The notes under the pieces were generated by a model. The model was given only the letters and a program-made list of their open reading frames with translations, was not told the origin of the DNA and made no database searches. From the IMG/VR virus record IMGVR_UViG_3300000101_000006, positions 9,267-73,266 of that record: a stretch of DNA of 64,000 bases; one strand, written 5' to 3'. Shown here piece after piece: positions 1 to 18,131 of the stretch (positions within the stretch are counted from its first letter, which is position 1; every line of letters begins with the position of its first letter). The DNA comes from a virus. A program made the translations under genes and the position numbers.

Positions 1-2
1 CG

Positions 3-227
3 GCTCAAGAACTAGCCCAAGAGTATCACAAAGAGGGGTGGACAGGCGACTGTAACGACTTCACGCAAGCATCTTCATCGGTCTCACAGGAACTCACAAA
101 CCTAGAAGTCGAGAGACTATGGGACGAGTTTAAGGGCGAAGAACTTATCTCAGACAACGTGACCTTTACATTCACTCGACAGGGTCGAGACAAAGTGATT
201 ACAATCGAACAAACGGACAATAATTGA
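3..227 (+). CDS. Partial hypothetical protein (5' end outside the window)
   Basis: Hand-translated open frame AQELAQEYHKEG...IEQTDNN* ends at TGA 225-227; the stop lies inside the first palindrome. Confidence 0.6.
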   Translation, partial: AQELAQEYHKEGWTGDCNDFTQASSSVSQELTNLEVERLWDEFKGEELISDNVTFTFTRQGRDKVITIEQTDNN

Positions 228-278
228 CCGATAAAGTAGCAAATAAAACTTGACAAGTTAGTCCAAACGTATTACATT
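214..278 (+). promoter_or_regulatory. Early promoter cassette 1 (palindrome + sigma70 promoter, class I spacing)
   Basis: CGGACA-ATAAT-TGACCG 214-230; 19 nt gap; TTGACA 250-255; 17 nt spacer; TACATT 273-278. Confidence 0.85.
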
Positions 279-318
279 ACTAATATAACAACAAAACCTC
301 ACAACAAACGGAGACGTT

Positions 319-1554
319 ATGTCTGACGACAAAACAACAAACGAACCATTCGATCTCAATGCTCACACCTATCGGTTGCTAGAGTCTGAACCGTTCTTCG
401 CCAGTCTTTCGAGACGCATCAACAAGTCCATCATGAAGTCCATCCCAACGGCTGGTGTTCGCATTACCGAACAAGGTCAGTTTGAAATGGTCTACAATCC
501 CGACTTCTTCGAGGCTCTATCACAGAAAGAACGTAGTGGTGTTCTCAAGCATGAGTTTTACCACATCATCTTCGAACACGTTACAGGTCGTCTACCACCC
601 GAGGGTATGACTAAGATGTGGAACATCGCGACAGACCTTGCGATCAACTCACACTTGATGGATGAATTGCCCGAACAAGGTTGCTTCCCAAGTCGCAAGC
701 CCTTTGAGGACTATCCTGTCGGTCAAAGCGCAGAGTTTTACTTCAAGATGCTACAAGAGGATGAGCAGTTTCAGAACGACAAAGGCGAGGGTGAAGATGG
801 CGATGGTGAGGGTCAAGGACAAGGTGGTCAAGGCAATGGCTTGCCCGACAGTCTCGATGACCATTCGGGTTGGGGTGGCGAACACCTCGATGAAGAACAA
901 CGCCAAGCCCTACGAGATGTAGCACAGGAGCGTCTAAAGCAAGCAGTCAAGGACGCAGTCGAGGAGATCAACTCAAACGGTCGTGGTTGGGGCACTATCG
1001 GTGCAGACACTCGCAAGGCTATCCAAGATTTCATCAAGCCAAAAGTCAATTGGCGCAAGGTTCTTCGATACTTCATCAAGACCTCGCAACGAGCGAACAA
1101 ACGGTCTACCCCTAGACGTATCAACAAGCGTTTCCCTTACGTTCACAGTGGTAAACGTGTGACCCGAACGGCTAAAATTGCTATCTCTATCGACCAGTCG
1201 GGTTCTGTTTCAGATAGCATGCTTGCCTTGTTCTTTTCGGAACTATCGGGTCTATCCAAGTATGCCGAGTTTACCGTAATTCCATTCGACACCGAGGTTG
1301 CCGAGAATGAAGTCTTTGTGTGGAAGAAAGGTAAGAAGCGAACGTGGGAACGTGTGTCCTGTGGTGGTACAAACTTCGATGCACCCACCAAATACGTCAA
1401 TGAACGTCAGTTTGATGGTCACATCATCCTTACAGACATGGAAGCCCCAAAGCCCAAGCCTAGCAAGTGCCAACGAATGTGGGCTACCACCCCCGAGTAT
1501 GCCGAAAACCCCTACTTCAGCACCAATGAACGCATGTTGGTGATGGACAAGTAA
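319..1554 (+). CDS. DUF2201-type putative metallopeptidase fused to a vWA domain
   Basis: HEXXH (LKHEFYH), acidic/Gly-rich linker, MIDAS-like motifs IDQSGSV, GGTNFD and ILTD; GGAG RBS. Confidence 0.85.
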   Translation: MSDDKTTNEPFDLNAHTYRLLESEPFFASLSRRINKSIMKSIPTAGVRITEQGQFEMVYNPDFFEALSQKERSGVLKHEFYHIIFEHVTGRLPPEGMTKMWNIATDLAINSHLMDELPEQGCFPSRKPFEDYPVGQSAEFYFKMLQEDEQFQNDKGEGEDGDGEGQGQGGQGNGLPDSLDDHSGWGGEHLDEEQRQALRDVAQERLKQAVKDAVEEINSNGRGWGTIGADTRKAIQDFIKPKVNWRKVLRYFIKTSQRANKRSTPRRINKRFPYVHSGKRVTRTAKIAISIDQSGSVSDSMLALFFSELSGLSKYAEFTVIPFDTEVAENEVFVWKKGKKRTWERVSCGGTNFDAPTKYVNERQFDGHIILTDMEAPKPKPSKCQRMWATTPEYAENPYFSTNERMLVMDK

Positions 1555-1611
1555 AATGTCCTGTAAGCCCCTTTGGGGGCTTGCCCTACCCCTACCCCTA
1601 CGGAGATGCGA

Positions 1612-1929
1612 ATGGAACGTAAGAAGTGTATGTGTGGCTACGCAACGGACAAACCACACAAGTGGGACGTTGGTCTTGACTTATGTTGGCATTGCGCTAA
1701 GGAGAAGCGCGAAGATCAAAAGATCCAAGACTATCTCGATACCTTTGATGTCGGTGACCTTGTCGTTTGGAAAGAGCAAGGTCACCTATTGGCGCGCAAG
1801 CACAAGTCGGGTAGGCGATGGGACATGGTGAATACTACTACCCTATCCACCCACCCATTTTATCCACTAAACATTGAAAGGTACGATACTAGCGAGAACA
1901 TAAGGGACGTAATTTACAAACGGACATAA
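1612..1929 (+). CDS. Small protein with Zn-ribbon-like Cys pairs and an SH3/KOW-like GDLV motif
   Basis: CMCG...CWHC, then FDVGDLVVWK; RBS GGAGA at about 1602 favours ATG 1612 over the track start 1573. Confidence 0.6.
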   Translation: MERKKCMCGYATDKPHKWDVGLDLCWHCAKEKREDQKIQDYLDTFDVGDLVVWKEQGHLLARKHKSGRRWDMVNTTTLSTHPFYPLNIERYDTSENIRDVIYKRT

Positions 1930-1985
1930 TTTGTCCGAGAAAGTAAAAGAAAAAACTTGACAAACAACTCCAAACGCATTACCTT
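1921..1985 (+). promoter_or_regulatory. Early promoter cassette 2 (class I)
   Basis: CGGACA-TAATT-TGTCCG 1921-1937; TTGACA 1957-1962; TACCTT 1980-1985. Confidence 0.85.
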
Positions 1986-2016
1986 ATAAACATCAACAAC
2001 GAAACATGGAGACAAC

Positions 2017-2388
2017 ATGAAACAACCCACAAGGAAAGACACCATCAACTTACGAGTGTGGCGAGGTGATGGATTGGTAACAATGGAGGGTATCGTAGGC
2101 ATCAATGACTATCCTCTCGCAGTCCACAGACCCATCAGTGAGTTTGTAGAAATCCAACAAGACTTTAGAACTCGCTATGGTGGGACGTGGTGCGTAACTC
2201 ACATTCCAACAGGCAAGTCATTCGGCATCCGTTCTCGTAACTGGAACGCAGTCGCTGACTACATAGACAAGGTCAAAGACCATCCAGTGTTATTGATGCT
2301 TACGGATGAAACGATGGTGCAACACCCAATGTATAGTGACTTGTGCGACCTACACTTTAAAGCAAAGTCGGCAATCCCGACACAATAA
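2017..2388 (+). CDS. Hypothetical protein
   Basis: 123 aa ORF with RBS CATGGAGACAACATG directly after cassette 2. Confidence 0.75.
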   Translation: MKQPTRKDTINLRVWRGDGLVTMEGIVGINDYPLAVHRPISEFVEIQQDFRTRYGGTWCVTHIPTGKSFGIRSRNWNAVADYIDKVKDHPVLLMLTDETMVQHPMYSDLCDLHFKAKSAIPTQ

Positions 2389-2394
2389 ATCAAA

Positions 2395-2458
2395 CGGACA
2401 TTTTCTGTCCGAGAAAGTAATAAAAAAACTTGACAAGTTAATCCAAACGTATTACATT
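2395..2458 (+). promoter_or_regulatory. Early promoter cassette 3 (class I)
   Basis: CGGACA-TTTTC-TGTCCG 2395-2411; TTGACA 2430-2435; TACATT 2453-2458. Confidence 0.85.
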
Positions 2459-2504
2459 ACTAACATAACGAACAAACAACTCAATCACAAACATTGGAGA
2501 CAAA

Positions 2505-2522
2505 ATGCGTGATCCACCGTAA
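2505..2522 (+). CDS. Five-codon mini-ORF MRDPP*
   Basis: TTGGAGACAAA-ATG CGT GAT CCA CCG TAA directly after cassette 3. Confidence 0.45.
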   Translation: MRDPP

Positions 2523-2556
2523 CTCTCGACACAATAAATAAACTTTCACTTTTTAC

Positions 2557-2585
2557 TTGACAACCTTTCACCAACGTGTTACACT
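2557..2585 (+). promoter_or_regulatory. sigma70-type promoter without palindrome, upstream of the AAA gene
   Basis: TTGACA 2557-2562; 17 nt spacer; TACACT 2580-2585. Confidence 0.75.
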
Positions 2586-2639
2586 ATTTAGACTAGACAC
2601 GTTGTCTATTTCATTCAATCCTAACAAAGGTATTTACTC

Positions 2640-3698
2640 ATGGCTATTTCTTACAAAGTTTTATTCTCGGTTCTCCCATCAATTATTGATGCAAAGTTTC
2701 CTGTCCTCATTCGTGGTCGCCACGGTATCGGTAAGTCCACTATCGTCTACCAAATCGCCAAAGAACGTGGCTTGCCTGTTATCGAGCGTCGTGCATCTCA
2801 AATGACTGAGGGTGACTTGCTTGGTCTCCCAAAGGTCGAGAACAACGTCACTCAGTGGCTTGCTCCCGAATGGTTGCACGATGCCTGTAACAACGCAGTT
2901 GTCTTGTTTCTTGACGAAGTCGACCGTGCAACAATGGAAGTGCGTCAAGGCATCTTCGAGTTGTGCGACAGTCGCAAAATTGCAGGCTACGAACTACACA
3001 AAGACACAGTTATCTTTGCCTGTGTTAACGGTGGTGGCGATCATGGAGACCAGTATCAAGTCGGTGAGATGGATCCAGCCGAACTTGACCGTTACACTGT
3101 CTTTGACGTTAAGCCAACCGTAGAAGATTGGTTGGAATGGGCTGATGGTAACGTATCCCAAGCAATTTGGGACTTCATCAACGACAACCACAGTCACCTC
3201 GAACACAACGATGACTACGAGCCTAACAAGGTTTACCCATCACGTCGTTCATGGGAGCGTTTGTCCCAAACCATCGGAGACAAGGACATCAAAGCATTGT
3301 CCAACACAGGTGTTCTTTACCACCTTGCAACAGGGTTCATCGGTTTCGAGGGCGCAGTAGCATTGGTTGACTACATCAAGAACTACAACAAGATCGTCAC
3401 TGTCGAGGAAATCCTCGAGGGCAAGCATGCTAAGACCTCAAAGTTTAGCATCAACGACCACAACGCAATGATCGAGCGTTTCAAGCAGTCCAAAGTATTC
3501 GACAGAGACCTCACACCAACGGAGTTATCAAACGTCGCAGAATACTTTGTAACGCTCCCTAGCGAGTTAGGTATGTTGTTCTTCCAAGTTATCTCTAAAG
3601 GTTCGTCAGTAGCCCATAACGCTCATGGTATCCATACGGCTACCCTGTCCGATGGTTCTACCCCTAAGGACTACTTGATGAAAATCCTCGCTCAGTAA
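2640..3698 (+). CDS. MoxR-like AAA+ ATPase
   Basis: Walker A GRHGIGKS, Walker B LFLDEVDRA, MDPAELDRY and YPSRRSWE motifs. Confidence 0.9.
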   Translation: MAISYKVLFSVLPSIIDAKFPVLIRGRHGIGKSTIVYQIAKERGLPVIERRASQMTEGDLLGLPKVENNVTQWLAPEWLHDACNNAVVLFLDEVDRATMEVRQGIFELCDSRKIAGYELHKDTVIFACVNGGGDHGDQYQVGEMDPAELDRYTVFDVKPTVEDWLEWADGNVSQAIWDFINDNHSHLEHNDDYEPNKVYPSRRSWERLSQTIGDKDIKALSNTGVLYHLATGFIGFEGAVALVDYIKNYNKIVTVEEILEGKHAKTSKFSINDHNAMIERFKQSKVFDRDLTPTELSNVAEYFVTLPSELGMLFFQVISKGSSVAHNAHGIHTATLSDGSTPKDYLMKILAQ

Positions 3699-3753
3699 CC
3701 CACTCACCTACCCCACCCCTTGTGGGGGTGGGCATCCACTCACAGGAGCGCAC

Positions 3754-3939
3754 ATGAACTATCAGGTTGGAGACCTTGTCTCACACTCAAAGATGGGTGG
3801 CATCGCCATCATCACAGGCATAGCAGTCGATGGTGACGACCCAGTCTATCGCACCAAATGGCTTGTAGCCCCCATCAATAACTATGAACCCATCTCAGCC
3901 CCACAACGATACCTAACCCCCATACAGGAGCGCACATGA
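3754..3939 (+). CDS. Small SH3/KOW-like protein
   Basis: MNYQVGDLVSHS; RBS ACAGGAGCGCACATG. Confidence 0.6.
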   Translation: MNYQVGDLVSHSKMGGIAIITGIAVDGDDPVYRTKWLVAPINNYEPISAPQRYLTPIQERT

Positions 3940-4127
3940 CCTACCCCCAAGCAGGCGACCTCTATAGTCGCAACATCAACCCTAACGAGATAATCTTGAT
4001 AATTCGAATGAGTGAGTCTAAGAACCTTGTAAAGACACAACACATCACAGACCCCATAAACAGTGGATGGCGTGGCGTAGACGACATAAAACTCAACTGG
4101 AAACCCCTAACAAAGGACAGCAAATGA
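3936..4127 (+). CDS. Small SH3/KOW-like protein, probable paralogue of the previous gene
   Basis: MTYPQAGDL; identical RBS block ACAGGAGCGCACATGA; ATGA overlap with the previous gene. Confidence 0.6.
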   Translation: MTYPQAGDLYSRNINPNEIILIIRMSESKNLVKTQHITDPINSGWRGVDDIKLNWKPLTKDSK

Positions 4128-4285
4128 ACACACTACACTTACTTATCGCATGCGACCTAGGCTTTGCCCTATTCGTTTGGTGGACTTATCGAGACCACAA
4201 CCGAAAGATGGATGCGCTCTACAAGAAATACGATAAAGACTATTCCGACAGAGACGAGAGGATAGACGGAACGGACAAAAACTGA
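4124..4285 (+). CDS. Small single-TM membrane protein
   Basis: Hydrophobic N-terminus (LHLLIACDLGFALFVWW); ATGA overlap; stop codon lies inside palindrome 4. Confidence 0.55.
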   Translation: MNTLHLLIACDLGFALFVWWTYRDHNRKMDALYKKYDKDYSDRDERIDGTDKN

Positions 4286-4336
4286 CCGTTAAAGTAACAG
4301 AAATAATTTGACAACTCAGCCCAAACGTATTACATT
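4272..4336 (+). promoter_or_regulatory. Early promoter cassette 4 (class I)
   Basis: CGGACA-AAAAC-TGACCG 4272-4288; TTGACA 4308-4313; TACATT 4331-4336. Confidence 0.85.
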
Positions 4337-4366
4337 ATAAACATCACCACAAAACATGGAGACAAC

Positions 4367-4543
4367 ATGAAATACTTATCCCACGAAGAAATGATGGTAG
4401 TTTGCACTACTGTCGCAACAATGTGCCTTTTGGCTCTAACCCTATTCGCTCAACCTATCGCATCTTGCATAGCAGAAAAAGATAAACAAGCAATCAACGA
4501 CTACAGACATCACCTAACAAACCAACCAAAGGAAACAAAATGA
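4367..4543 (+). CDS. Small membrane protein (58 aa, not in ORF track)
   Basis: RBS CATGGAGACAACATG; MKYLSHEEMMVVCTTVATMCLLALTLFAQP... Confidence 0.55.
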   Translation: MKYLSHEEMMVVCTTVATMCLLALTLFAQPIASCIAEKDKQAINDYRHHLTNQPKETK

Positions 4544-4704
4544 ACAAGAAAAAAATCACAATCTACGACCGAGTGAAGATAACATTCTCAAACGGTACTA
4601 TCCTACAACTCCCCAAGCCTACGGACTTAACTGAGAAAGAACTGGCTAAACAACTCGTCAACCTCGAGAAGAACAAACTTGTCCTCTCAGCAATCATCAT
4701 CTAA
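4540..4704 (+). CDS. Hypothetical protein (54 aa, not in ORF track)
   Basis: ATGA-coupled to the previous gene; MNKKKITIYDRVKITF... Confidence 0.5.
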   Translation: MNKKKITIYDRVKITFSNGTILQLPKPTDLTEKELAKQLVNLEKNKLVLSAIII

Positions 4705-4734
4705 AGGCTCGATGCCTTCGGGTCAAAAAGTAAA

Positions 4735-4778
4735 CGGACATTTTTTGACCTTGACTTTTCTTCTCACCTTGTTACATT
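4735..4778 (+). promoter_or_regulatory. Early promoter cassette 5 (class II, palindrome touches -35)
   Basis: CGGACA-TTTTT-TGACCT 4735-4751; TTGACT 4751-4756; 16 nt spacer; TG-n-TACATT 4773-4778. Confidence 0.8.
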
Positions 4779-4808
4779 ACTAACATCACCAACAAACATG
4801 GAGACCTC

Positions 4809-5174
4809 ATGCAAGGTTCATTCAAATCAATCTCTCAATTTCGTCAACTCAACTATCAACAAGGCTACCATTGGTTCGATGCATCATCCATGAAGTTCTT
4901 CGGTACTAGGCTACATGCAGACCTCTACGGTGGGTGCGTGTTCGTCACAAGCGACAAGCAATACAACGGAGACCGAAAGTATTCCGTTCGTGTCGGGATG
5001 AAAGATGGAACCATCAACTCTTATGCCTTTGTCGAATACGACACACGTTCAGAAGCCCACAGAGAAGCCAAGTGGTTGGGCAGTGCCTTGAAGAACGGCA
5101 CAATGCGATGGTGCAACGACTCGTATGAGTTTGTTGGAGAACAGGCTGAGTTGTCGTTAGGCTCGGAGGAATAA
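4809..5174 (+). CDS. Conserved-looking phage hypothetical protein
   Basis: HWFDASSMKFFGTR motif; GGAGA RBS. Confidence 0.75.
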   Translation: MQGSFKSISQFRQLNYQQGYHWFDASSMKFFGTRLHADLYGGCVFVTSDKQYNGDRKYSVRVGMKDGTINSYAFVEYDTRSEAHREAKWLGSALKNGTMRWCNDSYEFVGEQAELSLGSEE

Positions 5175-5179
5175 CCAAA

Positions 5180-5223
5180 CGGACATTTTCTGTCCTTGAC
5201 TTTTCTGACCAACGAGATACATT
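5180..5223 (+). promoter_or_regulatory. Early promoter cassette 6 (class II)
   Basis: CGGACA-TTTTC-TGTCCT 5180-5196; TTGACT 5196-5201; TACATT 5218-5223. Confidence 0.8.
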
Positions 5224-5263
5224 ATAAGAGAACAGAGAGAAATCTCGCAACACTGGAGACCAA

Positions 5264-5458
5264 ATGACTTTAGATCAATTCATCGCAGACTACCGTATCC
5301 CCTACTCAAACGACATACTCGACATCATTGAGGAAATCATCCATGACTTCTTCGAACAAGTCAAGGGTGACTACGATATGCACAACCTTGTTGACTGGAT
5401 AGCCTGTGAACTTGACTGTAACAAGTCTGACGTTTACGATGCCTACGACGCTTATTGA
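5264..5458 (+). CDS. Small acidic helical protein
   Basis: 64 aa Asp/Glu-rich ORF; GGAGA RBS. Confidence 0.7.
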   Translation: MTLDQFIADYRIPYSNDILDIIEEIIHDFFEQVKGDYDMHNLVDWIACELDCNKSDVYDAYDAY

Positions 5459-5462
5459 TGGT

Positions 5463-5527
5463 CGGTCATTTTCTGTCCGAGAAAGCAACAGAAAAAACTT
5501 GACAGATGAAACCAAACGTGATACATT
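5463..5527 (+). promoter_or_regulatory. Early promoter cassette 7 (class I)
   Basis: CGGTCA-TTTTC-TGTCCG 5463-5479; TTGACA 5499-5504; TACATT 5522-5527. Confidence 0.85.
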
Positions 5528-5579
5528 ATAAGAGAACAGAGGGAAAAGCCCTTTACTAACCAGTCACCAAGGAAACACC

Positions 5580-6179
5580 ATGACTACTCAAACCACTCAA
5601 ATCACCCCAAATGCACAGGTAATTACCATGACCGACAAAATGAACCTTTCATCTTTTATCCGTTTATTCGACACCCCAACCGACGCAATCGACCACATCC
5701 TTGAGTGCAACGAGAAAGGTCTTGTCGAGGTGTCCGAGAACACCTTGCCTGTCTACACGTTCGTCAATGGTCGGATCATCACTTATGCAGATTGGCAACC
5801 ACAGACCCATTCTTTCGACGTTCGCATCCAACGATGGTATGAGGATGAGGAATGCTCAAAGGACGCAGTCGTTCGTTTCGATTATACCGATGGGATCGAC
5901 CTCTATTGGAATCAACTGTCTCATGACTTGGATGGTGTAACCGATGAAAGCGAAATGCACTGGCAAGACAACATCGAGACCCACCACAGACGAGAGCGTG
6001 ACGCACTTGCTTTACAGGTGGTGATCAATAACCGTAGGTTAGCATCGACTCGAATCTATCTCATTGAAAAGGGCGCAACCATCACCCCCAATGAGTTTGA
6101 GCAACACTGTGAAAGGGTCGCAAAAATGCGAGAAGAAAACGAAAGAGCACTTAAGCGCATCGAAGAACTCGACTACTAA
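5580..6179 (+). CDS. Hypothetical protein
   Basis: 199 aa ORF with AAGGA RBS, downstream of cassette 7. Confidence 0.75.
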   Translation: MTTQTTQITPNAQVITMTDKMNLSSFIRLFDTPTDAIDHILECNEKGLVEVSENTLPVYTFVNGRIITYADWQPQTHSFDVRIQRWYEDEECSKDAVVRFDYTDGIDLYWNQLSHDLDGVTDESEMHWQDNIETHHRRERDALALQVVINNRRLASTRIYLIEKGATITPNEFEQHCERVAKMREENERALKRIEELDY

Positions 6180-6185
6180 GCCAAA

Positions 6186-6230
6186 CGGACAGTTTTTGTC
6201 CTTGACAAAGTGTCTTGGCCTTGTTACACT
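6186..6230 (+). promoter_or_regulatory. Early promoter cassette 8 (class II)
   Basis: CGGACA-GTTTT-TGTCCT 6186-6202; TTGACA 6202-6207; 17 nt spacer; TACACT 6225-6230. Confidence 0.85.
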
Positions 6231-6260
6231 ATAAACATCACCCCAACTCATGGAGACAAC

Positions 6261-6467
6261 ATGAACATCAAACAAGTTAAAACCCTTAAAGTAGGCGACG
6301 TAGTCCGTTGCCTTTGGAACCACCCATCAGGCAAAACAATCGACAAAGTCGAGACCGTGACCGTTGCTTGGGGCGTTGATGTTGCTATGGGTGTTCCAAG
6401 CGCAACGTTAGAGACTTTGTATATCACCCCTTATAACCACAAACACTTCACCATCGTATCCCAATAA
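6261..6467 (+). CDS. Small SH3/KOW-like protein
   Basis: RBS CATGGAGACAACATG gives start 6261; LKVGDVVRC motif. Confidence 0.6.
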   Translation: MNIKQVKTLKVGDVVRCLWNHPSGKTIDKVETVTVAWGVDVAMGVPSATLETLYITPYNHKHFTIVSQ

Positions 6468-6479
6468 CTCGGAGACAAC

Positions 6480-6677
6480 ATGGACATCTATAAAACCCCC
6501 AAAGGAACCTTGTTCCGTTTGTTCGACCAAACCTTGATCACCACAAGCGAGTATTACTATTGCCCACACCACAAGATCCACAAGGTCAAGGCACACAACA
6601 TCACAAAGGGCATCGACAAGGAAATCGGAGAGATCGCAATGCTCGATGCACACCCAATGAAACAGGAGACAAAATGA
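6480..6677 (+). CDS. Hypothetical protein
   Basis: 65 aa; GGAGACAACATG RBS. Confidence 0.6.
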   Translation: MDIYKTPKGTLFRLFDQTLITTSEYYYCPHHKIHKVKAHNITKGIDKEIGEIAMLDAHPMKQETK

Positions 6678-6958
6678 ACCAAGAAGAAATTATACAAGAC
6701 GCTTTCGACCAACTGTTGCATGAACAACGAGTGTCCAACAAAGGCTCCATTGAGACCATAAAGCACAGAGACAACTCGGTTGAGTGCAACCTGTCGAACG
6801 GATGGATGGTCGAACGCATTCACTTCACATCTTATTCCACAGGGTTGCCCATCGTTGCTAGCACATCCGTTTGTCTCTACGACAACAAAGGCGAGTTAGT
6901 GAGAGAGACAGTCTTTACCCACGAAAACAAGGAAACCCCATGCAAGCACTCACATTGA
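6674..6958 (+). CDS. Hypothetical protein
   Basis: RBS CAGGAGACAAAATG gives start 6674 within the track ORF 6560..6958. Confidence 0.6.
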   Translation: MNQEEIIQDAFDQLLHEQRVSNKGSIETIKHRDNSVECNLSNGWMVERIHFTSYSTGLPIVASTSVCLYDNKGELVRETVFTHENKETPCKHSH

Positions 6959-7176
6959 TTATCGTTAACCTCATGGCTATGGCGATTTACATTCCCTATT
7001 TACTGGACAAGGAGCGAAAGTATGACAACCAAACCGACACTACATCCAAGCCCATTCGCACTGGACATATTCATCACCCCACCACATCCCAATAGCCGAG
7101 TTGCCCGAGACCATAAAAAAAATAAAGTTAAACCATCGAAAGTAACGACACCAAAAGAGAATACAAAGGATAAGAA

Positions 7177-7452
7177 ATGAATATATCAAACAACTCACCA
7201 AAGCAATACGATACAGTATACCACGTAGAATACGGTAAAGGAACAATAGTAACAATCCAGTATAGAAAGGATGGAGGTTTAGCAATGTGCTACTTCCCCA
7301 AAGCAAAGGAGCATGATTGGATAACAATCCAACAGTTGTGTGTAGGTACAGGAGATATAACAATGCAACCTTTACCAACGAATAGTAATGAGAAAGTATC
7401 GGATGATCTTCAGAGCGCGTTAGAGAACCTTTTCTCGATGCCTAAGAGGTAG
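7177..7452 (+). CDS. Small SH3-like protein (CarD/TRCF-like strand pattern)
   Basis: DTVYHVEYGKGTIV motif. Confidence 0.55.
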   Translation: MNISNNSPKQYDTVYHVEYGKGTIVTIQYRKDGGLAMCYFPKAKEHDWITIQQLCVGTGDITMQPLPTNSNEKVSDDLQSALENLFSMPKR

Positions 7453-7668
7453 GACAAAAAAGACATTTGGTTTTATCCCTCAGAATGGTATGAGTATTGA
7501 GTTGTACAAGAACTCCCAGTGTATAGGTGAATGTGCGAAAGAGTGGCTAGAATGGAGTGTATCAGACCCATTTTTAAGGCACAACAAGGCACATACAACG
7601 CATCCTAGCACATACACCCATACCATTACGGCCCCAAACACCTAGGCGAACGTACAGACCCATCCTTG

Positions 7669-7741
7669 CCCCTCCTAGACCCTATCCCTTTTCCCCTACA
7701 CTCTACCCACCTACCCTACTACCCTACCCCCCGACAACCCC
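7669..7741 (-). repeat. C-rich tract; the minus strand has two canonical G-quadruplex motifs
   Basis: Nine runs of 3 or more C between 7669 and 7741, with loops of 2-9 nt. Confidence 0.6.
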
Positions 7742-7763
7742 ACCACTACCGAGAGAATAGCAC

Positions 7764-7937
7764 ATGACCCCACAAATAGGCACATTATTCACACACAAGT
7801 TCATAGACATGGGCTTGTTCATCGTTGTCTACCACTCAGACAAACGACTAGGGCTTAAGTCCATAGACACAGGTAAGACACGCTACATAGACCACAGGCA
7901 TCTGTCTAGCCAATACAAGCCCCTTACACACGAGTAG
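7764..7937 (+). CDS. Small SH3-like protein (57 aa, not in ORF track)
   Basis: MTPQIGTLFTHKF...YKPLTHE*; N- and C-termini resemble the 3936 gene. Confidence 0.5.
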   Translation: MTPQIGTLFTHKFIDMGLFIVVYHSDKRLGLKSIDTGKTRYIDHRHLSSQYKPLTHE

Positions 7938-7960
7938 CAACTGATTGGGGTCTCGGACAC

Positions 7961-8330
7961 ATGAGGGCACATCATGCTACATCATCAGCATTGTTGCATT
8001 CGCAACATTCACGTGTTGTCACATACACACATGACGCACTTGCAACAAACACGCATTAAGCGCACGAATGACGCATTATCAGCAATCAAAGATTGCCATG
8101 CACATATGACGCACATACAGCAATTAAAAATTGCTCTCCCTTACGGGCGTACCTATATAAACCTACGGTTTAAGGCTACGGATCATTAAGTTGGTCTATT
8201 GCGTCTACAGCAATTTACTTAACATAACTATGATCTTGCGTGCGCAGCATAATAAACTTTACATAACTATGATTCTAGAGTCTTAATTGATATGTTGCAT
8301 AAGCAACATTCACTTACTTTACATAACTAT
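7961..8330. repeat. Non-coding block with several repeat families
   Basis: ATGACGCA at 8031, 8068 and 8106; TGTTGC-N4-GCAACA at 7992 and 8293; ACTT(T/A)ACATAACTAT at 8217, 8256 and 8316. Confidence 0.7.
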
Positions 8331-8442
8331 TAGAGGTGATTGCTCTAGGTGGAATGGAATTTCTTTTCCCTCTACGATGTGCCAGCTCCCGAGGACATAG
8401 AAGGTTTACCGACGAAAGTGTAAAAAAACTTAGCCTTTCGAT

Positions 8443-8471
8443 TTGACAAGATACTCCAAACGGATTACATT
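8443..8471 (+). promoter_or_regulatory. sigma70-type early promoter without palindrome
   Basis: TTGACA 8443-8448; 17 nt spacer; TACATT 8466-8471. Confidence 0.8.
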
Positions 8472-8523
8472 ATAAACAACAGAACAACTCAGTTCTCAAA
8501 ACCCCCGATCTAGGAGATCAACA

Positions 8524-8817
8524 ATGGCTATTAACCATAACGTCCAACTTCAGTCAATGCTTTACTCTTTCAACAATTCTGCTTTGTATCTCGGCAACAC
8601 CAAGGTCGAAAGCATGGAGATGCTTGTTCCTCAGATGGTAAAGGCGTTCACCCAGTTAAGAGATCAAATCAGATCAATCCCAGTAAGTGACTGCCCTTAT
8701 CAAAAAGAGTGGGCACAAGCGACCATTAAGGAGGCCTTCGGACTCATCGACCTCATCAGTGAGACAGGGATGATGCCACTTGTTTACGAACAAGCAACAA
8801 AGCAAGACCGTAAATAA
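8524..8817 (+). CDS. Hypothetical protein
   Basis: 97 aa; AGGAG RBS. Confidence 0.7.
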   Translation: MAINHNVQLQSMLYSFNNSALYLGNTKVESMEMLVPQMVKAFTQLRDQIRSIPVSDCPYQKEWAQATIKEAFGLIDLISETGMMPLVYEQATKQDRK

Positions 8818-8834
8818 GGGCAACATAGAACGAA

Positions 8835-8899
8835 CGGACAGAAAATGTCCGTTCAACTAACACTTTTCATTTGACAACTCATCCATAACAGATTACATT
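8835..8899 (+). promoter_or_regulatory. Early promoter cassette 9 (class I)
   Basis: CGGACA-GAAAA-TGTCCG 8835-8851 (extends to GAACGGACA/TGTCCGTTC); TTGACA 8871-8876; TACATT 8894-8899. Confidence 0.85.
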
Positions 8900-8949
8900 A
8901 TAAACAATAGAACAACTCAGTTCTCAAAACCCCTCGCTCAGGAGAGCAT

Positions 8950-9609
8950 ATGACTTATAAAACTTCAACCCTTAACAACTTCGTTGGAACTTCCGAGCCT
9001 ACTTTCGTAGGTAACACTCAAATTGATGGTTACATCAATGATCGCCCTGTCGTCTTGCGTCGCCTTAAGAATGGTACAGTGATGCCCTGCGTAGGTACTA
9101 CCCTGCCTACCTCGATGGGTATGGGACGTGTTCGTGGTACTATGGACGGCAATCTTCTTGTAGACATCGTGTCTTTCAATGGAGCCTATATGTGGGAAAA
9201 TGCCGATGGTAGCGACATCTTCGATGCCGAAGAAAAAGTCGCAATGCTTAACGGATGTCTTCGACGTTCGCTAGACTCCATCATCGCAGACTACACTAGA
9301 GTCCACAAGTCCGAGATTACGGGCAAGTTAAGCCCTAGTCGTCAAGAAAAGTTAGATGCCTACTTGCCCGAGATTACCGACCGTACCCTGTCTATGTCTT
9401 TCAGTCCTCGAGTAATTGGGATGAATACTCCAATTATGTATGATGAAGTCAAGACTCCTAAGATGACCCCTGCTGAACGTCGTAAGCAACGAGCCTTAGA
9501 GGTTGCCGAGATCCAACGGATTGCTGATGCGATGTTAGAAGATGAGGTCGTACCGAGCGATGTCCAAGACGAGTTGGATGAAATGTTCGGTAATGATGGG
9601 GAGTTCTAA
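8950..9609 (+). CDS. Hypothetical protein
   Basis: 219 aa; AGGAG RBS. Confidence 0.75.
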   Translation: MTYKTSTLNNFVGTSEPTFVGNTQIDGYINDRPVVLRRLKNGTVMPCVGTTLPTSMGMGRVRGTMDGNLLVDIVSFNGAYMWENADGSDIFDAEEKVAMLNGCLRRSLDSIIADYTRVHKSEITGKLSPSRQEKLDAYLPEITDRTLSMSFSPRVIGMNTPIMYDEVKTPKMTPAERRKQRALEVAEIQRIADAMLEDEVVPSDVQDELDEMFGNDGEF

Positions 9610-9634
9610 ACCCTCGACCCACAGGGGAATGTAG

Positions 9635-9680
9635 AAGGCTCTATGATGTCGGTAGCCCCGACGTTGTAGGGCTTTTGTTT
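9635..9680 (+). terminator. Long intrinsic terminator hairpin
   Basis: 18-bp stem (9635-9652 with 9658-9675) including five G-U pairs, followed by a U-rich tail. Confidence 0.7.
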
Positions 9681-9732
9681 TATCCGAGACACTTACTTTA
9701 CATAACTATAAAGAGAAAAAAAGATTCCCATT

Positions 9733-9796
9733 CGGTCAGAAAGTGTCCGAAAAGAACGTCCTTTGGTTTGACAGGTAGGTCAAAACGTGATACATT
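9733..9796 (+). promoter_or_regulatory. Early promoter cassette 10 (class I)
   Basis: CGGTCA-GAAAG-TGTCCG 9733-9749; TTGACA 9768-9773; TACATT 9791-9796. Confidence 0.85.
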
Positions 9797-9818
9797 CTAG
9801 TATAACCAAGGAGTTCAA

Positions 9819-10847
9819 ATGACTAAACAATCTCTTCAAACTATCGCAATCATCGCAATCTATACAATCGCGATTGCCTACGTTATTCTGTGTACCTTTC
9901 AAACCATCGAGAATCTCGAACTCCTAGGAGCATCTATGCTAGCATTCAAACCATCTTTTTCTGTTGACTCACTTGTCTCAAAGTCTCGTAAGTATGGGGA
10001 GTCTAGCCACAATCGAAACTTTTGTGGTCTACATACCCCAATCTACCGAGTGATTAACTTTGCACAGGACTGGATCCTACAACACCGTATCGCTCGGGAC
10101 TTTATGATGAATACCTCTAGAGGTCAGGCAAAGTGGATAGTTCAGAATGACGATGCTCTTTCAATCCAAATGGCATATGGCTACAGTACCGTAAAAATCG
10201 GTGCTCGCACAATCTTCGCAGTTGATGAGAACACTCGTACCATCTATCACATCGACAGTACCGGGGTCCTACAGGTTACCGACTACTATCAAGACTACGA
10301 TATGAGTGACGTCAACGCTCAAGTCCTCGAAGTTCTCGAGGTTATAGCAGATCACTACAATGCCGAGAAATACGAGGCTTTAGACAATGATGCAAAACAA
10401 TATGATTGGCAGTTGATGTCCGATACTTGCGAGTTTACCGAGCGTACCGAGTGGAATAGAGCAACCGTAAAAGTATGGTGTCTTAACTTCTCTAAGACGT
10501 CGGTAGAATGGGAACGACAGTATGGTCGTATCAATCGCAACGGCTCGGTATCATACAAGACTGAGAAAGGCGATTACCCTAAGGCATATAAGGTCGCTAT
10601 TGGCGACGTCGTAGCGTGGGTTCCTCACTCTATAATGTCGAGTCGCACGACGTTGCACGGTGGACGTGTAGTAATCCATAAAGGGGATGATAACTTTTTG
10701 GGATGTTACACACACGCTCAGCCAATCGACCTACCTGTCTGGTGGCTCGAGAAAACCGTAGGTGTAGACTGGTCTGATAAGGTCGAGCCTATCGGACGTT
10801 CAGCATACATCAAGATGGTACAAAGAAAACGTCGTTGGAACCGATGA
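9819..10847 (+). CDS. Hypothetical protein with N-terminal TM segment and a possible internal start at 9936
   Basis: Hydrophobic IAIIAIYTIAIAYVILC; internal AGGAG-CATCT-ATG in frame. Confidence 0.7.
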   Translation: MTKQSLQTIAIIAIYTIAIAYVILCTFQTIENLELLGASMLAFKPSFSVDSLVSKSRKYGESSHNRNFCGLHTPIYRVINFAQDWILQHRIARDFMMNTSRGQAKWIVQNDDALSIQMAYGYSTVKIGARTIFAVDENTRTIYHIDSTGVLQVTDYYQDYDMSDVNAQVLEVLEVIADHYNAEKYEALDNDAKQYDWQLMSDTCEFTERTEWNRATVKVWCLNFSKTSVEWERQYGRINRNGSVSYKTEKGDYPKAYKVAIGDVVAWVPHSIMSSRTTLHGGRVVIHKGDDNFLGCYTHAQPIDLPVWWLEKTVGVDWSDKVEPIGRSAYIKMVQRKRRWNR

Positions 10848-10937
10848 TGTAGAACATCCTATGAGGCCGGTAGCACCGGCCTTGTTCGAGGTCCCACTTA
10901 CTTTACATAACTATGGGGAGCGGATCCGCTTTGCAAC

Positions 10938-11002
10938 CGGACATATTCTGTCCGTTAAAGTTACCCTATTTGTTTGACAGCTGTGTCTGAACGCGTTACA
11001 TT
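10938..11002 (+). promoter_or_regulatory. Early promoter cassette 11 (class I)
   Basis: CGGACA-TATTC-TGTCCG 10938-10954; TTGACA 10974-10979; TACATT 10997-11002. Confidence 0.85.
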
Positions 11003-11049: not shown

Positions 11050-11484
11050 ATGGACAATACACAATCAATTCAAACCATCCGTTACAACGCTAACATGATA
11101 CTTAGCACCTCACGCGCTACGACTGCAACCCTGCCTAACTATCGTTACCTTTTAAATCTTGGTAAGCGCATGGATGCGATCTCTGCATCTATTCGTTCTA
11201 TTGGTGAAGACTTTGAGAATGAACCAGTCGCCAACACGGTGGCGAACTCTATCCATAAGGCTATCAGCAATTTGATCCCCATCGTTCCAGTGTTGGACTT
11301 TGATCATGATGGTGTAGGTGAAGACCTCAACATTTTGGTGAGCAAGGCTATCGCTATTCTTGATGACTGTGATGAGGGTGGTTTAGGTTCGACGTTGTCG
11401 GATAGGTTCAACACCTTTATCCGAATGATGGAGATCCATGAAGAGTTAGAATTAGAATGGCTCGAGATGTTAGCAAACGATTAA
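11050..11484 (+). CDS. Hypothetical helical protein
   Basis: 144 aa; GGGAG RBS. Confidence 0.7.
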   Translation: MDNTQSIQTIRYNANMILSTSRATTATLPNYRYLLNLGKRMDAISASIRSIGEDFENEPVANTVANSIHKAISNLIPIVPVLDFDHDGVGEDLNILVSKAIAILDDCDEGGLGSTLSDRFNTFIRMMEIHEELELEWLEMLAND

Positions 11485-11506: not shown

Positions 11507-11534
11507 GCCTGCGCTTTTTAGCGTGGGCTTTTTT
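11507..11534 (+). terminator. Intrinsic terminator closing the early region
   Basis: GCCTGCGCT-TTTT-AGCGTGGGC followed by TTTTTT. Confidence 0.7.
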
Positions 11535-18102: not shown

Positions 18103-18131
18103 TTGACAGTCCCTTCAGAATGTGATATAAT
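18103..18131 (+). promoter_or_regulatory. Consensus sigma70 promoter
   Basis: TTGACA 18103-18108; 17 nt spacer; TATAAT 18126-18131. Confidence 0.85.

Follow-up and report, generated by a model that had tools for sequence, protein, structure and literature searches.

Most promoters of the early small-gene block in an abundant uncultured marine T4-like phage and its relatives carry, at a small number of set distances, an invariant palindrome of 15-17 bp, a putative docking site for a dimeric regulator which is probably an activator. Our preferred reading, to which we would assign a probability of roughly 0.45, is that the palindrome constitutes an operator in double-stranded DNA for a dimeric activator that would work together with the host sigma70 RNA polymerase and be present at infection, with a Fis-type protein as the best candidate. 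The features on which this reading builds, namely the sites, their invariance, their distances, the lack of selection for a hairpin and the decay of certain -35 boxes, can be taken directly from the DNA.

The window, i.e. the whole stretch of 64,000 nucleotides analysed here, comprises bases 9267-73266 of a 127,431-bp virus record. The phage has been detected in seawater metagenomes of 11 studies and possesses a T4-type gene set (gp23-like capsid protein, sheath, baseplate wedge, portal, TerL and a gp55-like late sigma factor). Its early block consists of about 60 small ORFs, roughly half of which have no homologue in the closest relative, and the conserved backbone of early genes keeps its order between the two; a synteny map against G001 reveals both gain and loss of ORFs within the block. 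Orthologous early proteins share only 37-89% identity. Contigs of related strains fuse different genes and their joints fall inside promoter cassettes (1965 to 6240, 1967 to 272, 1967 to 4346 and 2428 to 268), which suggests that the breakpoints of gene gain, loss and replacement are located there, although repeats can also break alignments at cassettes.

The palindrome is a dyad with the 15-bp core GGWCA-N5-TGWCC, of odd length and centred on a base pair. The pattern CGGWCANNNNNTGWCCK has 11 exact matches in the window (at 214, 1921, 2395, 4272, 4735, 5180, 5463, 6186, 8835, 9733 and 10938), exactly where an earlier note on this DNA had placed them, while shuffles gave a mean expectation of 0.02 matches for CGGWCA-N5-TGWCCK. 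The promoter which that note had described after every site was likewise seen in 11 of 11 cases: each palindrome is followed downstream by TTGAC(A/T), 16-17 nt, TAC(A/C)(T/C)T, then a GGAG ribosome site and an ATG. The cassettes are listed in window coordinates, with the gene that each is predicted to drive:

214..278, + strand: cassette 1; palindrome 214-230, A-rich 19-nt spacer, -35 250-255, -10 273-278; gene 319-1554, DUF2201 metallopeptidase/VWA
1921..1985, + strand: cassette 2; palindrome 1921-1937, 19-nt spacer, -35 1957-1962, -10 TACCTT 1980-1985; gene 2017-2388, conserved 123-aa protein
2395..2458, + strand: cassette 3; palindrome 2395-2411, 18-nt spacer, -35 2430-2435, -10 2453-2458; gene 2505-2522, MRDPP minigene only
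4272..4336, + strand: cassette 4; palindrome 4272-4288, 19-nt spacer, -35 4308-4313, -10 4331-4336
4735..4778, + strand: cassette 5, overlapping class; palindrome 4735-4751, its last T being the first T of the -35 TTGACT 4751-4756; 16-nt promoter spacer, -10 4773-4778 with TG in front; gene 4809-5174, DUF7447
5180..5223, + strand: cassette 6, overlapping class; palindrome 5180-5196, -35 TTGACT 5196-5201, -10 5218-5223
5463..5527, + strand: cassette 7; palindrome 5463-5479, 19-nt spacer, -35 5499-5504, -10 5522-5527; gene 5580-6179, 199-aa protein
6186..6230, + strand: cassette 8, overlapping class; palindrome 6186-6202, -35 TTGACA 6202-6207, -10 TACACT 6225-6230 with TG in front
8835..8899, + strand: cassette 9; palindrome 8835-8851, 19-nt spacer of unrelated sequence, -35 8871-8876, -10 8894-8899; gene 8950-9609, 219-aa protein
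9733..9796, + strand: cassette 10; palindrome 9733-9749, 18-nt spacer of unrelated sequence, -35 9768-9773, -10 9791-9796; gene 9819-10847, 342-aa protein
10938..11002, + strand: cassette 11; palindrome 10938-10954, 19-nt spacer of unrelated sequence, -35 10974-10979, -10 10997-11002; gene 11050-11484, 144-aa protein

The right arm of cassette 1 contains the stop codon of an upstream 85-aa ORF, and a strong terminator and a ACATAACTAT motif are found upstream of cassette 10.

A motif scan of the full genome, as proposed in the earlier note, yielded 18 sites in the 127,431-bp record, every one within its first 20 kb; seven are located 5' of the window (record positions 1196, 2407, 4909, 6133, 6654, 7611 and 8649) and none was found elsewhere in the record beyond these and the 11 in the window. 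Six related marine phage contigs contribute about 100 sites beyond the record's 18. In all, the early regions of 7 related contigs contain 115 sites, and approximately 18-28 promoters per genome are marked. Tandem abutting sites are present in one relative. The palindrome marks the early small-gene block only. Strong sigma70-like promoters at 18103, 27552, 28270, 29122, 36944 and 38660 of the window are devoid of the motif, which bears out a further statement of the earlier note. Inside the block itself two promoters of the same type also lack the palindrome, and two ordinary terminators are found:

2557..2585, + strand: palindrome-free promoter (TTGACA-17-TACACT) before the MoxR-like AAA ATPase gene 2640-3698
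8443..8471, + strand: palindrome-free promoter (TTGACA-17-TACATT) before the 97-aa ORF 8524-8817
9634..9676, + strand: canonical intrinsic terminator, 19-bp stem, -25.6 kcal/mol, T run
11507..11528, + strand: canonical intrinsic terminator closing the early block, 9-bp GC-rich stem, -14.2 kcal/mol, T6

The promoter of the orthologous MoxR-like AAA ATPase gene does carry the palindrome in three relatives, in the overlapping position.

Conservation of the site is all-or-none. When 106 strong early promoters were collected irrespective of the palindrome, 87 had a perfect core (10 of 10 positions), none had a single mismatch and 19 had no site, while variation is free at the W bases, within N5 and in the flanks. 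The position relative to the promoter is likewise restricted. As claimed before, eight of the window sites end 18-19 nt 5' of the -35 box and three (4735, 5180 and 6186) have their last T in common with it, so that the centres are at -62/-63 and -42/-43 if the -10 is placed at -12 to -7. Across the relatives the centres remain discrete, near -42, -52, -62 and -73, the third and fourth position (about -52 and -73) being added by the relatives. In detail, the palindrome lies 21/22 nt from the -10 in 55 sites, 31/32 nt in 9, 41/42 nt in 25 and 52/53 nt in 2, and 9 further sites with weak -35 boxes have the 21/22-nt distance. At orthologous genes in different phages the gap may be 19, 9 or -1 nt, i.e. 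the position jumps by 10 or 20 bp, and the length of the class B spacers and of five class C spacers is maintained although their sequences are unrelated. Part of the fixed spacing does come by cassette inheritance. These discrete distances and jumps support a dimer-type site tied to the promoter, and the steps of 10 and 20 bp with centres from -42 to -73 agree with the helical-turn geometry suggested earlier. This geometry does not hold throughout, however, because two more distant sub-lineages have a gap of 5-6 nt which places the centre at about -50, some 100 degrees out of helical phase, and this counts against an activator.

An indication of a positive function comes from the -35 boxes, which have decayed in those promoters that are overlapped by a site while the palindrome itself is perfect. 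A perfect TTGACA is found at 34 of 37 distal sites as opposed to 5 of 55 overlapping sites, and in one sub-lineage CTGCGG or TTGCGG replaces the -35 next to an intact palindrome and a consensus -10 (TATAAT). The earlier proposal that an activator gates the whole early block is supported in part: an activator is the better reading, but the site does not control the whole block, since the promoters at 2557 and 8443 are of the same type and have no site.

The earlier note missed the fit of the core to the Fis consensus, as well as the published PeSL cassette context discussed below. The published Fis consensus is GNNYAWWWWWTRNNC (PMC3302801), and the determinants published for high-affinity sites are G-7/C+7 and a Y-R step at +/-3-4 around an A/T centre, with T excluded at +4 and G at -8 (PMC4784862). 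Judged by its sequence, the core meets every one of these determinants. G at -7 and C at +7 occur in all sites but were demanded by the search pattern; the promoter-first collection has 87 perfect cores among 106 promoters. The central positions were free in the pattern: among 68 sites, 203 of the 204 bases at -1, 0 and +1 are A or T, and A or T also prevails at -2 and +2, where G at -2 or C at +2 is accepted. The Y-R steps read CA and TG and +4 is occupied by G; position -8 is C in 57, T in 7, A in 4 and G in none of the 68 sites, and position +8 is G in 33, T in 34 and C in 1. Nevertheless, T at -8, the best flank for Fis, is rare, and positions -8, -6 and -5 are conserved far beyond the needs of E. 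coli Fis. The degeneracy typical of Fis sites, in which only +/-7 is strongly conserved, is also missing, as -6, -4, -3 and their mirrors are invariant; such all-or-none sites argue that the binder is more specific or that selection is very strong. In addition, predicted Fis sites frequently fail to bind (PMC2885671).

What the preferred reading of an activator's operator adds by inference are the transcription start sites, the binding of a protein, its identity and whether it regulates positively or negatively. A dimeric protein on the dyad would cooperate with the sigma70 RNA polymerase of the host at promoters in the hyperplastic early block, most likely in a positive manner. From about -62 or -52 it would sit just 5' of an A-rich UP-like tract and help the alpha subunits of the polymerase, whereas from about -42 it would abut the -35 and replace the UP tract and, in part, the -35. 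As the cassette promoters seem to be the earliest ones, the binder is expected to be in the cell already at infection, and would either be made by the host or enter by injection along with the DNA; the best concrete candidate would be a nucleoid protein of the Fis type from a gammaproteobacterial host. Two further observations weigh against this reading. With their consensus -35, a spacing of 17 bp and an A-rich tract, the distal promoters should fire unaided, which speaks against the need for an activator. Furthermore, the exact pattern was not found outside the present lineage among the IMG/VR phages searched, and in a sample of 401 Pseudomonadota genomes the number of copies never exceeded two, just as with the reversed control.

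The apparently constitutive strength of the distal promoters would suit an operator for a repressor or shut-off factor encoded by the phage, an early or middle protein that would bind every palindrome and silence the early block at the early-to-middle transition, an explanation we consider unlikely, albeit worth serious attention. It could act by occluding the -35 at overlapping sites and by holding the polymerase or blocking the alpha-CTD at upstream sites, as phi29 p4 does at A2c. The limitation of the motif to one temporal and functional block and its absence from the other sigma70-type promoters of the genome, the all-or-none high-information sites typical of a dedicated operator set, the restriction to this phage lineage in IMG/VR and the tandem sites all fit such a factor; lambdoid operators, too, are 17-bp dyads centred on a base pair. 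On the other hand, a repressor explains neither why the -35 boxes decay exactly under overlapping sites nor why upstream sites avoid the core promoter and yet keep quantised distances. No recognisable DNA-binding domain was detected in three complete genomes or the scanned early ORFs, HTH_3, RHH_1, HU, HTH_8, Cro/CI-like HTH and Ogr/Delta domains being absent from this record and three complete relatives, which also speaks for the preferred reading, and the modelled folds of two conserved early proteins gave no DNA-binding match.

The shuffling of early genes, with about half of the ORFs lacking a homologue around a backbone of conserved order and with breakpoints inside cassettes (e.g. 1965 to 6240, 1967 to 272 and 2428 to 268), would be accounted for if the palindrome were a recombination module only, homogenised between cassettes by concerted evolution or targeted by a recombinase, with no role in transcription. 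PeSL mini-circles offer a precedent (PMC2839356). This is nevertheless improbable, as homogenisation should equally make N5, the flanks and the W bases uniform, all of which vary freely, and the -35 decay at overlapping sites points to a transcriptional role. The arms are also, to our knowledge, too short for known recombinase core sites.

PeSL (promoter-early stem-loop) cassettes are known in the T4-type phages RB49/phi1, T4/PST and KVP40/nt-1 (Arbiol et al. 2010, PMC2839356; Comeau et al. 2014, PMC4122927), where the stems are phage-specific G/C-rich terminating hairpins in which pairing alone matters; for RB49/phi1 they were shown to be terminators/attenuators (PMC2839356, PMC4122927). The context here is the same, in that a block rich in ORFans in a T4-like phage has a stem-loop followed by an AT-rich tract, a sigma70 promoter and an SD (PMC2839356, PMC4122927), the palindromes sit immediately 3' of upstream stop codons, and a T-rich tail follows 21 of 68 sites, all of the overlapping class. 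A stem-loop in RNA or single-stranded DNA which insulates each early cassette is, however, quite improbable. Left and right W bases vary independently (39 of 68 sites complementary, 41.9 expected; Fisher p = 0.53), and an A-A or T-T clash interrupts the 6-bp stem in 29 of the 68. The mean folding energy is -7.5 kcal/mol for matched and -3.0 kcal/mol for mismatched stems, compared with -25.6 and -14.2 kcal/mol for the phage's real terminators; ordinary terminators are in use elsewhere. Distal sites are followed by an A-rich tract and no U tract, the arm sequence itself is invariant beyond pairing across diverged phages, and a terminator has no need of a quantised distance to the -10. On these grounds the palindrome very probably does not qualify as a PeSL hairpin.

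A CRP/FNR-family dimer at the canonical class I (-61.5) and class II (-41.5) positions, as proposed in the earlier note from the centres near -62/-63 and -42/-43 under its own assumption for the -10, is very improbable, since CRP (TGTGA-N6-TCACA) and FNR (TTGAT-N4-ATCAA) sites are of even length and centred between base pairs and do not fit a 5-N5-5 site with GGWCA arms, an odd 15-bp core and a base-pair centre, and since the relatives also use centres at about -52 and -50, from which CRP reportedly gives no activation.

Compared with known systems, the cassettes resemble class I/II CRP/FNR promoters in having a putative dimer site near -62 (5' of the alpha-CTD contact region) or -42 (abutting the -35) and weaker -35 boxes in the latter case, but differ in the odd length, the N5 spacer, the GGWCA arms and the extra positions near -52, -50 and -73. 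With PeSL cassettes they share T4-related myoviruses with hyperplastic small-ORFan blocks, a repeated unit of approximately 100 bp (dyad, AT-rich tract, near-consensus sigma70 promoter, SD, ATG) and relatives that differ in gene content with breakpoints within cassettes; the invariant arms without covariation, the weak stems, the missing U tract after distal sites and the quantised promoter distance set them apart.

Phi29 p4 binds 5' of strong early promoters, contacts the alpha-CTD and can repress by over-stabilising the polymerase. It provides a precedent for negative action from a phased upstream operator, but acts at two or three promoters as opposed to some 18-28 per genome here, where a p4-like protein was not found. 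Lambda CI at OR2 activates PRM, and P2 Ogr and P4 Delta use a dyad near -55 of late promoters. These are also phage-specific dyads at a fixed place 5' of or abutting a sigma70 -35, read by small dimeric or zinc-finger activators that contact polymerase, and the lambda operators are 17 bp as well; they are, however, single switches or late regulons with recognisable proteins, whereas the present genes are early.

Finally, the Fis sites of tyrT and rrnB P1 share one face of the helix and precede promoters that contain an UP element (rrnB P1 -71, -102 and -143; tyrT -71, -91 and -122; PMC2885671). Like those of Fis-UP-core rRNA and tRNA promoters, the phage sites directly precede an A-rich tract that leads into a near-consensus core promoter, and the positions used differ by one or two helical turns. 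Unlike them, the main predicted positions in this phage are -62 and -42 and not -71, and each promoter carries a single non-degenerate site instead of an array. If the binder were indeed Fis, the cassettes would imitate rRNA P1 promoters in their Fis-UP-core layout, and early phage expression would be tied to the growth state of the host.

All eleven palindromes described in the earlier note (17-bp CGGWCA-N5-TGWCCK dyads, cassettes 1–11, window 214–11002) are exact matches of the pattern CGGWCANNNNNTGWCCK, and the window holds these same eleven and no others, the chance expectation being a mean of 0.02 matches in 100 dinucleotide-preserving shuffles. The claimed layout of dyad, TTGAC(A/T), 16–17 nt and TAC(A/C)(T/C)T recurs at all flanks, which also place a short leader, GGAG and ATG after the -10 box of every dyad promoter, and the same promoters were retrieved by an independent consensus scan. 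The dyad-to-35 distance is likewise as claimed, namely 18–19 nt in eight of the eleven, with the last T shared with the -35 box in the other three. At window 214–230 the right arm contains the TGA stop of the 85-aa ORF upstream, which is conserved, so that this palindrome covers the final 14 nt of that ORF.

The motif scan of the full genome that had been proposed gave seven more dyads, all before the start of the window, and nothing in the other 107 kb, confining them to the first 20.3 kb of the record. Strong sigma70-type promoter matches on the plus strand of the record number 37, of which 18 carry a dyad, all within these 20.3 kb. Another 14, downstream of the early block, are all without one, and the six downstream sigma70 promoters reported as motif-free are indeed so. 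The suggestion that the motif governs the whole early block has to be narrowed, as five strong promoters there lack a dyad, including those at window 2557 and 8443.

All genes of the record lie on a single strand and include a gp23-like major head protein, portal, large terminase, tail sheath and baseplate wedge proteins, in addition to a gp55-like late sigma factor, PhoH and a sugar-modification cluster. The capsid protein has only distant T4-related phage matches, Flavobacterium phage immuto (47% identity) being the best, along with Rhodothermus phage RM378; when the early block and a structural stretch of 20 kb were compared by megablast with 50,697 phage records, no close cultured relatives emerged, and protein searches returned distant T4-like matches only. 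DNA of this phage was found in seawater and marine metagenomes of 11 studies. Six related contigs (G001–G006) were obtained by IMG/VR pattern scans and a protein-based search, three of them estimated complete at 184–192 kb, each with 8–28 dyads clustered in one 10–20 kb region of small genes, and 115 sites were analysed overall.

Circularity was avoided by calling strong promoters first, in seven early regions, and scoring the best upstream match to the 15-bp core GGWCA-N5-TGWCC afterwards. Among 106 promoters, 87 match the core at 10/10 positions, none has one mismatch and a single one has two, the remaining 18 being at background with three or more. A or T make up 203 of the 204 bases at the middle three positions of N5, which the search pattern left free; immediately 5' of the core stands C in 57 sites, T in 7, A in 4 and G in none, and in most sites a run of AAA comes ahead of this base. 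The dyad is a genuine, strongly non-random feature that a diverse lineage of marine phages has conserved. Two abutting palindrome pairs were seen in G004 (IMGVR_UViG_3300040751_002893, record 51644–51673 and 51964–51993), where the paired 17-mers overlap by their terminal CG at a centre-to-centre distance of 15 bp, with one promoter just downstream of each pair.

The distance from the end of the dyad to the start of the -10 box takes only a few discrete values.

Spacing classes, dyad end to -10 start (G000 is the present record)
21/22 nt: 55 sites, and 9 with weak -35 boxes; all seven contigs
28/29 nt: 7 sites; G004 only
31/32 nt: 9 sites; G001 and G002
41/42 nt: 25 sites; mostly G000 and G001
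52/53 nt: 2 sites; G003 and G006

Assuming the -10 box at -12 to -7, the computed centres fall near -42, -50, -52, -62 and -73. The two-position geometry of the earlier note is a fair class I/class II description of this genome, but it is only part of a longer series, and the attribution to a CRP/FNR-type protein is mismatched by the site format. The regularity is partly inherited because many 18–19 nt spacers have the common consensus AAAGTAACAGAAAA.AC; length is kept despite unrelated sequence in nine of nine 8–9 nt spacers and in five of those of 18–19 nt. Moreover, orthologous genes fall into different spacing classes in different phages.

Gaps between dyad and -35 box at orthologous genes
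one zinc-knuckle gene: 19, 9 and -1 nt
DUF2201 gene: 19, 19 and -1 nt
123-aa gene: 19 and 9 nt
219-aa gene: 19 and 9 nt

It follows that, within the clade of the window, the permitted positions are spaced by one helical turn. Exceptions are G004 and a metagenomic sub-lineage (L067), whose gap of 5–6 nt puts the dyad out of phase by about three base pairs.

The sign of the regulation may be read from the -35 boxes. Of the 37 distal sites, 34 have a perfect TTGACA, whereas among the 55 overlapping sites only 5 boxes are perfect, the others reading TTGACT, TCGACA, TTTACA, TTGCTT and similar; several promoters of L067 even have CTGCGG or TTGCGG at this position, with the dyad intact and a -10 consensus of TATAAT. 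Decay of the -35 box where a perfect dyad abuts it would be expected of an activator standing in for the box, and is not predicted by a model in which a repressor occupies the dyad. The distal promoters, however, appear strong without help, which counts against an activator; on balance we consider activation about twice as likely as repression.

A quite different reading takes the dyad for a terminator hairpin. The promoter-early stem-loop (PeSL) elements published for T4-type phages comprise a terminator stem-loop, an AT-rich tract, a sigma70 early promoter and a Shine-Dalgarno sequence (PMC2839356, PMC4122927). Arm position 4 of the dyad (A or T) is chosen independently in each arm, 39 of 68 sites being complementary against 41.9 expected (Fisher p = 0.53), and the mean folding energy is -3.0 kcal/mol for the 29 non-complementary sites and -7.5 kcal/mol for the rest. 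The real terminators of the early block, at window 9634–9676 and 11507–11528, reach -25.6 and -14.2 kcal/mol, each with a T run behind it, whereas an A-rich tract comes after the distal dyads. The lack of covariation, the folding energies and the tails speak against a terminator, and this reading was rejected. Independent arms, weak folding and A-rich tails point instead to selection acting, in duplex DNA, on each half-site for its sequence, as expected of the target of a dimeric protein, and the dyad is best described as an operator-like DNA site at quantised promoter distances. An origin from a restriction site (CGGWCCG split by insertion) was discarded as meaningless.

Both the binder and the sign of regulation are predictions. 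An activator of first-firing promoters must pre-exist, suggesting either a host protein or one injected with the DNA. The 15-bp core conforms to the published high-affinity consensus of the host protein Fis, GNNYAWWWWWTRNNC (PMC3302801), and satisfies every structural determinant described in PMC4784862, namely the contacts of Arg85 (G at -7, C at +7), an A/T centre permitting minor-groove compression, a Y-R step at ±(3–4), a purine in place of T at +4, and the absence of G at -8, where G costs 150-fold and C only 3-fold (PMC4784862). At stable-RNA promoters with UP elements, the Fis sites occupy a single face of the helix further upstream, at -71, -102 and -143 in rrnB P1 and at -71, -91 and -122 in tyrT (PMC2885671). 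Serious caveats apply, since the Fis consensus is loose and predicted Fis sites frequently fail to bind (PMC2885671). In addition, the dyad differs from natural Fis sites in being invariant at -6, -5 and -8 and in having no degenerate copies, and T at -8, the optimum of E. coli Fis, is rare among the dyads. Fis is therefore a tentative candidate, and we put the probability that a widespread marine T4-like lineage wires nearly all of its accessory early-gene promoters to host growth-phase Fis, in the manner of rRNA P1 promoters, at about 0.22. Under the Fis reading the first minutes of infection would scale with host growth rate, and the few palindrome-free promoters would remain independent of the growth signal.

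Searches for a binder encoded by the phage identified none. Pfam scans found no DNA-binding family in 20 early proteins, and HTH_8, HTH_3, RHH_1, HU and Ogr_Delta gave nothing above cut-off in six-frame translations of the present record and the three complete relatives. The two best-conserved small basic early proteins, of 112 and 123 aa, have confident AlphaFold models (pLDDT 84 and 94) with no significant match to solved structures or DNA-binding folds (best scores Foldseek E ~1, VIA Z 3.2), and Atlas look-ups returned viral hypothetical clusters only. The 123-aa protein (window 2017–2388; pTM 0.86), for which Z 3.2 was the best among solved chains, may be a new fold as judged from its model; its homologues make up at least 70 clusters in marine metagenomes. 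A basic protein of 132 aa, encoded downstream of a promoter that lacks the palindrome, was rejected since it is not conserved in the relatives. The 111-aa protein at 5200–5535 of locus L006 of the record, with a C-x2-C...C-x2-C motif, is among the best-conserved early proteins, with 88% identity to its G001 counterpart and about 61% to those of G002 and G006; it gave no Pfam, PDB-sequence or Ogr/Delta match and is a candidate nucleic-acid binder, to be taken as a lead.

No host regulon emerged, as none of 401 sampled Pseudomonadota genomes is enriched, CGGWCANWWWNTGWCCG reaching at most two copies per genome, equal to the reversed control. The exact 17-mer CGGTCAGAAAGTGACCG occurs once or twice in each of eight of these genomes, which exceeds chance for one sequence. 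Two IMG/VR pattern scans gave only a few single-copy contigs with the strict cassette pattern outside the lineage. Among these are two high-GC viral contigs, L010 (~6335–6372) and L011 (~10336–10373), apparently unrelated to the lineage, in which CGGACA-N5-TGTCC stands twice in tandem, 21 bp apart, upstream of TTGACA; such a pair may serve as the operator for a related binder that acts in a different group of hosts.

As to the host, the RmlB-like gene is uninformative (~63% identity to short contigs of mixed MAGs), a single tRNA gene, tRNA-Ala, was found, and all contigs with a homologue of the 123-aa protein are metagenomic. The G+C content is 40–45%, which together with strong GGAG ribosome sites and TTGACA-type promoters presumably argues against a Bacteroidota or cyanobacterial host. 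A marine gammaproteobacterium would be compatible with these features.

Early proteins share only 37–89% identity with those of the closest relative, where roughly half of the present early ORFs are without a match, and the early block is hyperplastic in the way described for T4-type phages. Contigs from four metatranscriptome runs of one marine study span most of window 1–5800 at 90–99% identity; being assembled, they allow neither strand nor transcript ends to be read, and DNA carry-over is possible. They represent related strains with genes joined differently, the breakpoints falling within promoter cassettes, which is suggestive of PeSL-like shuffling.

Strain joints (window positions)
1965 joined to 6240
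1967 joined to 272
1967 joined to 4346
2428 joined to 268

Several other elements of the early block were noted. A full cassette and a strong ribosome-binding site serve the pentapeptide ORF MRDPP-stop alone (window 2505–2522), and G001 has MNDPP-stop at the equivalent place (locus L015, minus strand, ~2650), likewise between two cassettes, so the minigene seems conserved and not accidental. The 10-mer ACATAACTAT is present in five copies against 0.15 expected, usually inside (T)TTAC(T)TTACATAACTAT.

Copies of the 10-mer (window positions)
8222–8231, non-coding stretch
8261–8270, non-coding stretch
8321–8330, non-coding stretch
9700–9709, exactly 23 nt before a palindrome, one of the last two
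10905–10914, exactly 23 nt before a palindrome, one of the last two

It also precedes a G001 site, and may mark either another class of promoter or another binding site. More than a dozen early ORFs of 50–80 aa (record bases 93–9263, locus L006, and window 3754–8000) begin M-I/K-E/x-V/I-G-D/T-L-V (MIEVGDLV, MKIGDLV, MNIGDLV) and make up a large family of tiny paralogous proteins that is represented in each of the four closest relatives. Two ~315-aa paralogues (locus L006, 1296–2240 and 7719–8669) carry an N-terminal C-x2-C-x4-H-x4-C zinc knuckle; both are kept in four phages, with a palindrome cassette ahead of each.

A dyad under such selection points to a regulator that reads about 20 early promoters together in abundant, uncultured ocean phages. 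Should the host supply this regulator, as with Fis, the phage would sense the physiological state of its host from the very start of infection; a regulator encoded by the phage would represent a new DNA-binding family, given that the common domains are all absent. A 27-bp oligonucleotide of the site is a ready bait for the binder, and the site, if regulatory, would be a compact, portable control element for strong promoters.

The distal cassettes share with the Fis-UP-core design a site, an A-rich tract and a near-consensus core, and would imitate this layout of stable-RNA promoters. PeSL-type cassettes are regarded as promoter-plus-terminator modules which enable the shuffling of accessory genes in T4-like phages; those described here match them in context and layout, and are grouped with them by context and probably by evolutionary role. 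They differ, however, in that their dyad shows no stem-like behaviour and is selected for sequence and promoter distance, not for pairing.
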